NCBI GenBank assembly: GCA_964621445.1
Contig: CAZUNO010000006.1
Span: 92,336 to 156,335, forward strand
Reading direction: 5' to 3'
DNA length: 64,000 nt
Origin: Candidatus Hadarchaeota archaeon
GTDB taxonomy: Archaea; CAYQAE01; CAYVLA01
Below are positions 389-26,377 of this stretch, piece after piece. Below the pieces are notes generated by a model. That model searched no databases, was not told where the DNA came from, and saw only the letters and a list, made by a program, of their open reading frames with translations. The translations under genes and the position numbers were made by a program. Numbering within the stretch: position 1 is the stretch's first letter; each line of letters opens with the position of its first letter.

Positions 389-678
389 GTGCATGTCCTT
401 CGGGCTGTGGGGACTACTTTGGGGTCAGGTATCTTGGGAGCGAGGCCGGGGGTCTCGATTAGGTCGTGGGTGATTCTGGCCGGCGCGTTCCTGATCGTAG
501 GGATCCTTTCCTTTGTCCTGCCCCGTACTTGCCGGGACTGGCAGATGAGCTGGGTACCGCGGTTCTGGCTCTGGCGGTTGCCAATATGCTTCTGATAATG
601 CTCGAAAATATATCGCGGAGGAGTAATGAAACTGGGCCCAGGATGCCGTCTCCCATTCTATGGGCGCCGGACCTTTGA
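389..678 (+). pseudogene. Probable remnant of a small membrane-protein gene, split across two frames
   Basis: Hydrophobic segments in overlapping frames (389..595 WVILAGAFLIVGILSFVL; 466..678 LGTAVLALAVANMLLIML); no family recognised. Confidence 0.3.
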
Positions 679-720
679 CGAGGCCCCCTGTTTTGTATCT
701 AGAGGCGTTGTCAGATCATG

Positions 721-818
721 TGGGCCCGCAGGGATTTGAACCCCGGATTTCCGCCCCGTTTACCCGCTCTTTCCGCGAGAGCTAAAGGCAGCGTCATAGC
801 CAACTAGACCACGGGCCC
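721..818 (-). tRNA. tRNA-Val (most likely TAC) with 24-nt intron at non-canonical 34/35 (intron 783..760)
   Basis: Minus strand: GGGCCCG acceptor/CGGGCCC-A, GTGGTCTAG...TATGAC D arm typical of archaeal tRNA-Val, anticodon stem CTGCC/GGCGG enclosing 31 nt, T arm CGGGG-TTCAAAT-CCCTG. Confidence 0.8.
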
Positions 819-917
819 TTTTTTTGGCAACTTCAAGGGGCCTGTAAGAAAAATATTTTGTTCAGGGCCTTAATGCTTACCCTATGTTTTTATTCTAGAA
901 AGTTCTGGTGAATATAG

Positions 918-1418
918 ATGTGGTCCAAGATAGAGGAGTATTTCCGGGCCTATCCTGCCCGTTGGAAAGTGGTTTCGCATTTGGTAAGACAAGGTCTCTC
1001 AGTCAGCGAGGGCTCAATAAGGAGCGGGGATATCGAGATACCTGCAGTGAGCGTTGCCAGAGCCTGTGGGGTTGATCGGCGGGTGGTTTCAGCTACCGTG
1101 GAGTGTATCGAGGAGGATGACTTTATCAGGAGCGTTTTCAGGGACCTCGAACCGACGCTGTTTCTTGCCAAAGTTGGGCCAAAGATAGGTTACGGGGTTC
1201 TGGAGGTTCTTGTAGAGGACCCCCAGGCTCCCGGGATAGTGGAGACGGTGACCTCCGAGGTTTCCAAAGCGGGAATATCAATCCGTCAGGTAGTGGCCGA
1301 CGACCCGAGGTTTTCCGACCCCCCCATGCTGACCATCATCACCGATGGACCCCTTCCCGGGGAGCTTCTGGAGAAGATCCGCTCAAAGGAAGGGGTAAAC
1401 GAATTGATAATCCGGTGA
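918..1418 (+). CDS. ACT-domain regulator of amino acid metabolism (COG2150-like)
   Basis: N-terminal IEIPAVSVARACGVDRRVV HTH-like segment plus C-terminal ACT (DPQAPGIV...GISIRQVVADDP). Confidence 0.85.
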   Translation: MWSKIEEYFRAYPARWKVVSHLVRQGLSVSEGSIRSGDIEIPAVSVARACGVDRRVVSATVECIEEDDFIRSVFRDLEPTLFLAKVGPKIGYGVLEVLVEDPQAPGIVETVTSEVSKAGISIRQVVADDPRFSDPPMLTIITDGPLPGELLEKIRSKEGVNELIIR

Positions 1419-26274: not shown

Positions 26275-26377
26275 GCCGGGGTGGCAGAGTGGTAATGCGC
26301 TGGACCCCGAGAGGCGGGGCGAACCTTGAGAGCCAGTGTCCCTTCGGGACACGGGGGTTCAAATCCTTCCCCCGGCG
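26275..26377 (+). tRNA. tRNA-Ser(TGA) with 20-nt intron at 30/31 (26304..26323)
   Basis: Removing ACCCCGAGAGGCGGGGCGAA gives CTGGC-CT-TGA-GA-GCCAG; long variable arm TGTCCC-TTC-GGGACA; usual position after S10. Confidence 0.92.

Follow-up and report, generated by a model that had tools for sequence, protein, structure and literature searches.

What anticodon does a tRNA gene deliver when the intron of its precursor can be folded for removal in two mutually exclusive ways? This question is raised by a gene on the minus strand (818..721) of the window, i.e., the whole 64,000-nt stretch of Candidatus Hadarchaeota archaeon DNA that was analysed, in which 31 nt (786..756) instead of the usual 7 separate the anticodon-stem halves CUGCC (791–787) and GGCGG (755–751). 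A first-pass annotation had described a Val-type body with 31 nt inside the anticodon stem, and two splice registers leading to the anticodon UAC (register A) or UAG (register B). This description was confirmed in every detail from a reading of both strands, and a BHB scan, set to a central helix of 4 bp, bulges of 3 nt, and cleavage after the second bulge base, reproduced the two registers exactly.

Gene structure and the two splice registers

The sequence 818..721 folds into a cloverleaf with a 7-bp acceptor stem and D and T arms, and all four of its stems are intact. The variable loop, AAAUC, is 5 nt long (class I), and the discriminator is A73 at position 721. The Rfam tRNA model RF00005 matches the gene with 50.3 bits (E-value, 8.2e-8) and places the insertion in the anticodon loop; it is because of this insertion that the score is moderate. 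ARAGORN run without the intron mode missed the gene, while ARAGORN -i reported tRNA-Val(tac) with a 24-nt intron, i(36,24). Both spliced forms are taken by ARAGORN as full-length 75-nt tRNAs, namely Val tac (35–59 removed) and Leu tag (38–62 removed). The features of the locus are as follows (arrows mark cuts).

721..818, minus strand: predicted tRNA-Val(UAC) gene, interrupted by one 24-nt intron; pre-tRNA of 98 nt, mature tRNA of 74 nt before CCA (RF00005, ARAGORN -i)
784..818, minus strand: 5' exon of register A, tRNA positions 1–34, with U34 as the last base (BHB geometry)
760..783, minus strand: intron of register A, 24 nt, at the non-canonical position 34/35; its removal gives the loop UUUACGG
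721..759, minus strand: 3' exon of register A, beginning with A35 and C36, with the discriminator A at 721 and CCA not encoded
786..789, minus strand: 5' strand of the register A central helix (G29 C30 C31 U32, from the anticodon stem), pairing with 762–765
762..765, minus strand: 3' strand of the register A central helix, GGGU, followed by the 3' splice-site bulge AA↓A (761–759)
766..782, minus strand: inner helix h' of register A, the intron hairpin GCUCU (782–778) / AGAGC (770–766) with a 7-nt loop
757..780, minus strand: alternative intron of register B, at the canonical position 37/38 (strict hBHBh' in this genome)
786–783 / 762–759, minus strand: central helix of register B, with the bulges GCU (782–780) and CGG (758–756)
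779–775 / 767–763, minus strand: inner helix of register B, the outer helix being the anticodon stem
849..859, minus strand: A/T-rich box AAAATATTTTT, 31–41 nt upstream of the mature 5' end (read from the sequence)

In register A, the cuts fall between U784 and A783 and between A760 and A759 (after gene positions 35 and 59), so that 783..760 is removed and the product loop reads UU-UAC-GG, with the anticodon UAC and the intron at 34/35. All four pairs of the central helix GCCU/GGGU are formed, the inner helix GCUCU/AGAGC has 5 bp, and the contiguous outer helix has none. When the fold was constrained, the 5' bulge UU↓A was closed by H and h', and the 3' site lay in a 6-nt bulge closed by 3 bp. 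Since its 3' site is without a contiguous outer helix, register A is a member of the relaxed HBh'/BHL group rather than a strict hBHBh' motif.

In register B, the cuts are located between C781 and U780 and between G757 and G756 (after gene positions 38 and 62), and 780..757 is removed. The central helix UUUA/UAAA (4 of 4 pairs, each of them A-U), the 5-bp inner helix, and an outer helix identical with the 5-bp anticodon stem make up a strict hBHBh' motif. The product loop is UU-UAG-CG, with the anticodon UAG, a pyrimidine (C37) next to it, and the intron at the canonical 37/38 position. A purine at position 37 combined with A35 and C36 is thus a property of the register A product only. Among the other registers in this genome, retention of 2 loop bases would give AAC and retention of 5 or 7 would give UAG, and none of these has a 4-bp central helix. 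Sequences of the type found in the related genome G001 allow two more BHB-like registers (cuts 34/59 and 33/60), which leave loops of 6 nt or 4 nt.

The frequency with which a second fold arises by chance was estimated in 200,000 simulated sequences, in which the exons and the register A pairing were kept and the remaining positions were filled at random. When an inner helix of 2 bp or more was demanded, a strict register B emerged in 2.3% of the trials; with 3 bp or more, the share was 0.9%. The double fold is uncommon, but a scan of many windows could yield it by chance. Three of the four central pairs of register B join U32, U33, and U34 to A35 and to the purine-rich 3' bulge of register A, and the bases of these three pairs are fixed for other reasons.

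Upstream of the gene, the orthologues described below (L035–L041) carry ATTTTTGT about 32 nt away, at a distance similar to that of the A/T-rich box in this genome. The box is possibly an archaeal TATA-like promoter element.

Valine tRNA set and conservation of the intron

The assembly consists of 89 contigs, is 96% complete, and contains 38 matches to RF00005. BHB candidates and ARAGORN calls over these 38 matches were very permissive, many of them being spurious, and were used only for genes that were also read by eye. The first-pass annotation had left it to be seen whether the genome holds other tRNA-Val(UAC) and tRNA-Leu(UAG) genes. No second Val-UAC gene was found among the 38 matches of this assembly, while a long-armed, class II Leu-UAG gene with two insertions is present at C25:41388-41505. 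The other valine isoacceptors are Val-GAC (G000:C3:160497-160593), which has a canonical intron and is wrongly called Leu(caa) by ARAGORN -i, and Val-CAC (G000:C5:169963-170051), which has a 16-nt D-loop intron and is wrongly called Asp(gtc). The codon GTA has a frequency of 11.7 per 1000 in 839 long ORFs; since it is in use, a UAC anticodon is needed.

The 5' half of the gene is 92–94% identical to intronless Val-UAC genes of other archaeal genomes (G004, G034, G011, G055) and 85% identical to the Val-GAC gene of the same genome, and its 3' end is 96% identical to the Val-CAC gene. Judged by these identities, the body is of the Val type. Identity as a tRNA-Leu(UAG) was also considered and was rejected, as the variable loop has 5 nt and no long arm, and the class II Leu-UAG gene is located elsewhere.

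Other disrupted tRNA genes were observed along the way. The window contains a second one (26275-26377, plus strand; RF00005, 42.8 bits), which ARAGORN -i reports as Leu(gag) and which, read by eye, is a class II tRNA-Ser(UGA) whose anticodon stem is interrupted by ~20 extra nucleotides near 30/31. Two insertions are present in tRNA-Ala(CGC) at G000:C19:3831-3954 (plus strand). The first of its introns, at 33/34, shows the architecture of the Val intron: its 5' bulge is UU↓A, the central helix is built from anticodon-stem bases, and the outer helix is absent. Gene callers that are aware of introns and blind to the BHB scramble the tRNA set of this genome.

The class is represented by five genomes in the collection. 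Full-length orthologues were found in two family members, G003 and G001 (88% and 86% identity, respectively). In G004, which belongs to another family, the Val-UAC gene is intronless, and in G002 (91% complete, 500 contigs) no Val-UAC gene was found; three candidate loci in the latter genome turned out to be Arg-CCG, Met-CAU, and Lys-UUU. A pattern search, in which the 3' exon was required to begin with ACGGGGCGG, matched five metagenome contigs and, again, G003 and G001. The pattern is able to match intronless genes too, and every match was intron-bearing. In total, 10 gene copies (G000, i.e., this genome, G003, G001, and the five metagenome contigs) were reduced to 6 distinct sequences. The MAFFT alignment (A1) had gaps misplaced inside the intron, and pairs were therefore counted by splice-site geometry.

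The exons are the same across the three genomes and five metagenome contigs save for three positions, and the 5' exon is the same in all of the orthologues save for one D-loop base. The introns are 18, 20, 23, or 24 nt long and vary in sequence but keep their pairing. In all six sequences, register A forms 4 of 4 central pairs and no fewer than 4 contiguous inner pairs, and its product loop is UUUACGG. Inner pair 3 is U-A in two sequences and C-G in four, which is a compensatory change; at central pair 1, four sequences have G-U and two have G-C. Three of the six are closely related, and the covariation thus rests on few independent events.

Register B fares differently. Its central helix is complete in this genome and in none of the other five sequences, where an A.C or U.U mismatch interrupts it; the numbers of contiguous inner pairs across the six are 5, 3, 1, 1, 3, and 2; and its product would carry the anticodon UAG in three sequences and UUG in the other three. 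The first-pass proposal of register B as an evolved alternative splice is contradicted by the mismatched central helix in five of six sequences and the UUG product in three of six, as the register B pairing is not kept in the orthologous introns. The weaker form of that proposal, mis-splicing or a decoy fold, may apply to this one lineage, where register B is a perfect motif with a slightly better folding energy. Because register B is present here and absent from the relatives, an accident is more likely than a designed switch, and on comparative grounds register B is probably such an accident.

A further observation concerns the first intron base and the base closing the register A central helix, which are A and U, and so able to pair, in this genome, whereas each of the five other sequences has a non-complementary combination (A/C or U/U). 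This could hint at an avoidance of register B in those sequences, which are far too few as independent cases.

A close strain is represented in contigs of two runs (X3 and X4) from a second study, labelled as a hypersaline lake metagenome, that cover window positions 716-950. Over these 235 bases, it differs at six positions and by one 1-base deletion, and its sole change inside the gene is an intron-loop base (window position 774). In the contigs of four DNA runs over positions 600-950, no splice joint was seen, and there was one difference inside the gene. A search for RNA runs covering window positions 500-1100 returned none.

Folding energies, splicing enzymes and rival readings

Ensemble free energies were calculated at 37 °C under constraints that fixed the cloverleaf arms and enforced the entire BHB. 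In this genome, they amounted to −36.3 kcal/mol for register A and −38.9 kcal/mol for register B, so that B was favoured by 2.6 kcal/mol at 37 °C, and at 55 °C by 1.6 kcal/mol; in the other five sequences, register A was favoured by 6.9–12.8 kcal/mol. The unconstrained minimum-energy fold of this precursor contained the anticodon stem and the register B inner helix, not the hairpin of register A. Without body constraints, the cost of forming the motif was 4.8 kcal/mol for register A and 4.4 kcal/mol for register B. The latter value falls inside the 3.1–5.4 kcal/mol spanned by five genuine canonical introns from the same genome, and by this modelled cost register B looks like a normal substrate. 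The range for six non-canonical introns, which were hand-picked and of which two are uncertain, was 1.7–9.5 kcal/mol. With the body fixed, formation of register A cost 7.1 kcal/mol in this genome and 1.7–8.2 kcal/mol in the orthologues; as the former lies inside the latter range, register A is no harder to form here than in the sequences that have it as their sole option. The 3' bulge begins with A in 10 of 11 other, hand-picked BHBs of this genome, and this pattern favours register A, whose AA↓A fits it, over register B, whose CG↓G does not.

The Pfam models PF01974 and PF02778 match two genes, giving two EndA paralogues (L042, L043):

G000:C2:82920-83723, minus strand: EndA paralogue
G000:C9:28248-29768, plus strand: EndA paralogue

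Residues 125-507 of the ORF on C9 (507 aa as listed) align with residues 13-387 of the 395-residue chain of PDB 4FZ2 (E-value, 4.6e-74), and its true start is probably later than listed. The protein is of the epsilon type, with three units, and homologues with 62–68% identity are found in 4 of 4 family genomes; G004 yielded nothing better than a 36% match, in a frame of 190 aa. The 373-aa protein on C2 has the two-repeat layout of alpha'2, and its catalytic half aligns gap-free to the alpha subunit of A. pernix, with RKPK opposite the loop residues K44/R46. The structure 4FZ2 is the epsilon2 EndA of ARMAN-2, for which PMC3488258, PMC3239211, and PMC6379350 describe a broad specificity, with both strict and relaxed motifs being cut, and the K44/R46 loop of A. 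pernix is tied to broad specificity in PMC3241643. Both paralogues are present in all four family genomes searched, and the single sister-family genome yielded one short match only. RtcB is also present (609 bits). Based on these homologies, the genome encodes two predicted EndA paralogues with broad-specificity features, together with a predicted RtcB.

Maintenance of register A in all six sequences, together with the tRNA set and the use of GUA codons, points to register A as the functional splice. This reading, to which we assign a probability of about 0.8, takes register A as the functional and selected splice of the only Val-UAC gene found and register B as an unselected by-product of lineage-specific drift. 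The preference of the first-pass annotation for the UAC product is supported by the same evidence. We infer that in the cell the three inner pairs of the anticodon stem would open in the precursor, and G29-C30-C31-U32 would pair instead with the GGGU of the intron, giving the 4-bp central helix. The 3-nt 5' bulge would then consist of U33, U34, and the first intron base and be closed by the 5-bp hairpin of the intron itself, and the 3' site, AA↓A, would lie just past the central helix, in a bulge that is unclosed or enlarged (relaxed HBh'/BHL). A broad-specificity endonuclease, either the epsilon-type EndA or the alpha'2-like EndA with its Crenarchaea-type loop, may cut both sites, after which RtcB would ligate U34 to A35, thus creating the anticodon UAC, and the anticodon stem would form again.

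The main competitor holds that dual-register splicing is real here, with Val-UAC produced via register A and more than a few percent of the precursor processed in register B to a Val-bodied tRNA with UAG and C37, which would be either inert waste or a source of low-level Leu-to-Val mistranslation at CUA/CUG. The hBHBh' that register B forms at the canonical site is perfect, strict BHB motifs are, to our knowledge, accepted by every EndA type, and at 37 °C the energy of register B in this genome is the better one by 2.6 kcal/mol, with a formation cost within the range of genuine canonical introns. The near-identical variant from the second study keeps both folds, but it is too closely related to show selection. 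Against this reading stand the perfect register B central helix in only one of six sequences, with register A favoured by 6.9–12.8 kcal/mol in the other five, the appearance of register B in about 1–2% of random fillings, its composition of four A-U pairs, and a 3' bulge, CG↓G, that departs from the A-first pattern of the genome. Its product would carry C37 and would be without C36, which is an identity base for ValRS. We therefore consider dual splicing unlikely. Doubtful to the same degree is the more specific claim that, in this organism and its close strain, a pre-tRNA with two mutually exclusive motifs is cut in both registers in vivo. If it were true, Val(UAC) would make up the majority or a sizeable share of the product and the rest would be Val-bodied with the Leu anticodon UAG; this would amount to a natural choice of anticodon by alternative tRNA splicing, either as tolerated noise or as a source of Leu/Val ambiguity.

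Splicing at 37/38 only, which would turn the gene into a UAG tRNA (an odd-bodied Leu decoder or a non-functional relic) and register A into an accident, could draw on the strict motif at the usual position, the slightly better energy in this genome, and the acceptance of the register B product by ARAGORN as tRNA-Leu(tag). It is very improbable, as it is register A, not B, that is conserved in six of six sequences with a compensatory change, while the register B anticodon differs (UAG or UUG) among the orthologues. Moreover, a genuine long-armed Leu-UAG exists elsewhere, GUA codons (11.7 per 1000) would be left without any reader found, the body, with its variable loop of 5 nt, is 92–94% identical to Val-UAC genes, and the product would have the pyrimidine C37. 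Slighter still are the chances of a decaying pseudogene in which neither fold is used: the moderate Rfam score of 50.3 bits would fit, but the four cloverleaf stems are intact, the exons are nearly invariant (three positions differ) around an intron that is free to vary and yet keeps its pairing, no other Val-UAC gene was found, and the upstream A/T box is conserved.

For the preferred reading, i.e., register A as the functional splice, the most immediate consequence is one of annotation, because under the canonical reading the isotype comes out wrong. In the unspliced gene, the anticodon position reads TAG and the canonical motif is flawless; a gene finder with a preference for 37/38 would report tRNA-Leu(TAG), leaving the genome apparently without a decoder of GUA. 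Beyond annotation, the precursor would offer a natural substrate for studying the choice of EndA between mutually exclusive strict and relaxed motifs on one RNA, and it could also reveal how far the cell tolerates an imperfect splice choice.

Comparison with known archaeal introns

The primary catalogue of non-canonical archaeal tRNA introns is reportedly that of Marck and Grosjean (2003). Relaxed BHB motifs (HBh'/hBH/BHL) are catalogued for Crenarchaeota, Nanoarchaeum, and ARMAN-2 in PMC4090602, PMC6379350, and PMC3239211. The Val intron resembles these in its 4-bp central helix, one 3-nt bulge closed by the intron hairpin, a second site left unclosed, a position outside 37/38, broad-specificity EndA types, and the many other disrupted tRNA genes of the genome. 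It differs from them in that its 34/35 site splits the anticodon, so that UAC exists only after ligation, and in that three anticodon-stem pairs have to be melted for the central helix; unlike the catalogued lineages, the one described here is a small class, with five genomes in the collection. The positions given in PMC4090602 are 20/21, 22/23, 25/26, 29/30, 30/31, 45/46, 53/54, 56/57, 59/60, 3/4, 'etc.', and 34/35 is absent from this list, which ends in that word. A literature search that included PMC4390854, with the primary catalogues outside its scope, found no archaeal introns at 34/35 among the matches listed. Judging from its sequence, the intron is of a known archaeal kind, at a position that, primary catalogues apart, was not found listed. 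The gene indicates that the anticodon triplet itself can host an intron with a relaxed motif, and that such an intron can be maintained across genera of a little-known archaeal family with two EndA types.

Register B, in turn, is comparable to the canonical 37/38 introns of the strict 3-4-3 hBHBh' type, having a 5-bp outer stem, two 3-nt bulges, an inner helix, and a 4-bp central helix that takes in positions 32–35. In contrast to such introns, it would place a Leu anticodon and C37 on a Val body, its pairing is absent in five of six sequences, and its CG↓G bulge is atypical for the genome.

Introns near the anticodon that were mis-annotated as canonical are on record: according to PMC8450103, tRNAscan-SE 2.0 corrected 54 of them relative to v1.3, and four remained. 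The Val intron is a similar case of an intron located a few bases off 37/38 that, misread in the canonical register, leads to a wrong anticodon and isotype, with the difference that the wrong register here is a fully formed strict BHB and not a software default alone. With ARMAN-2, finally, this genome shares an EndA of the epsilon type, the C9 ORF matching 4FZ2, whereas, unlike ARMAN-2, it keeps a second EndA that is alpha'2-like and has a Crenarchaea-type loop.
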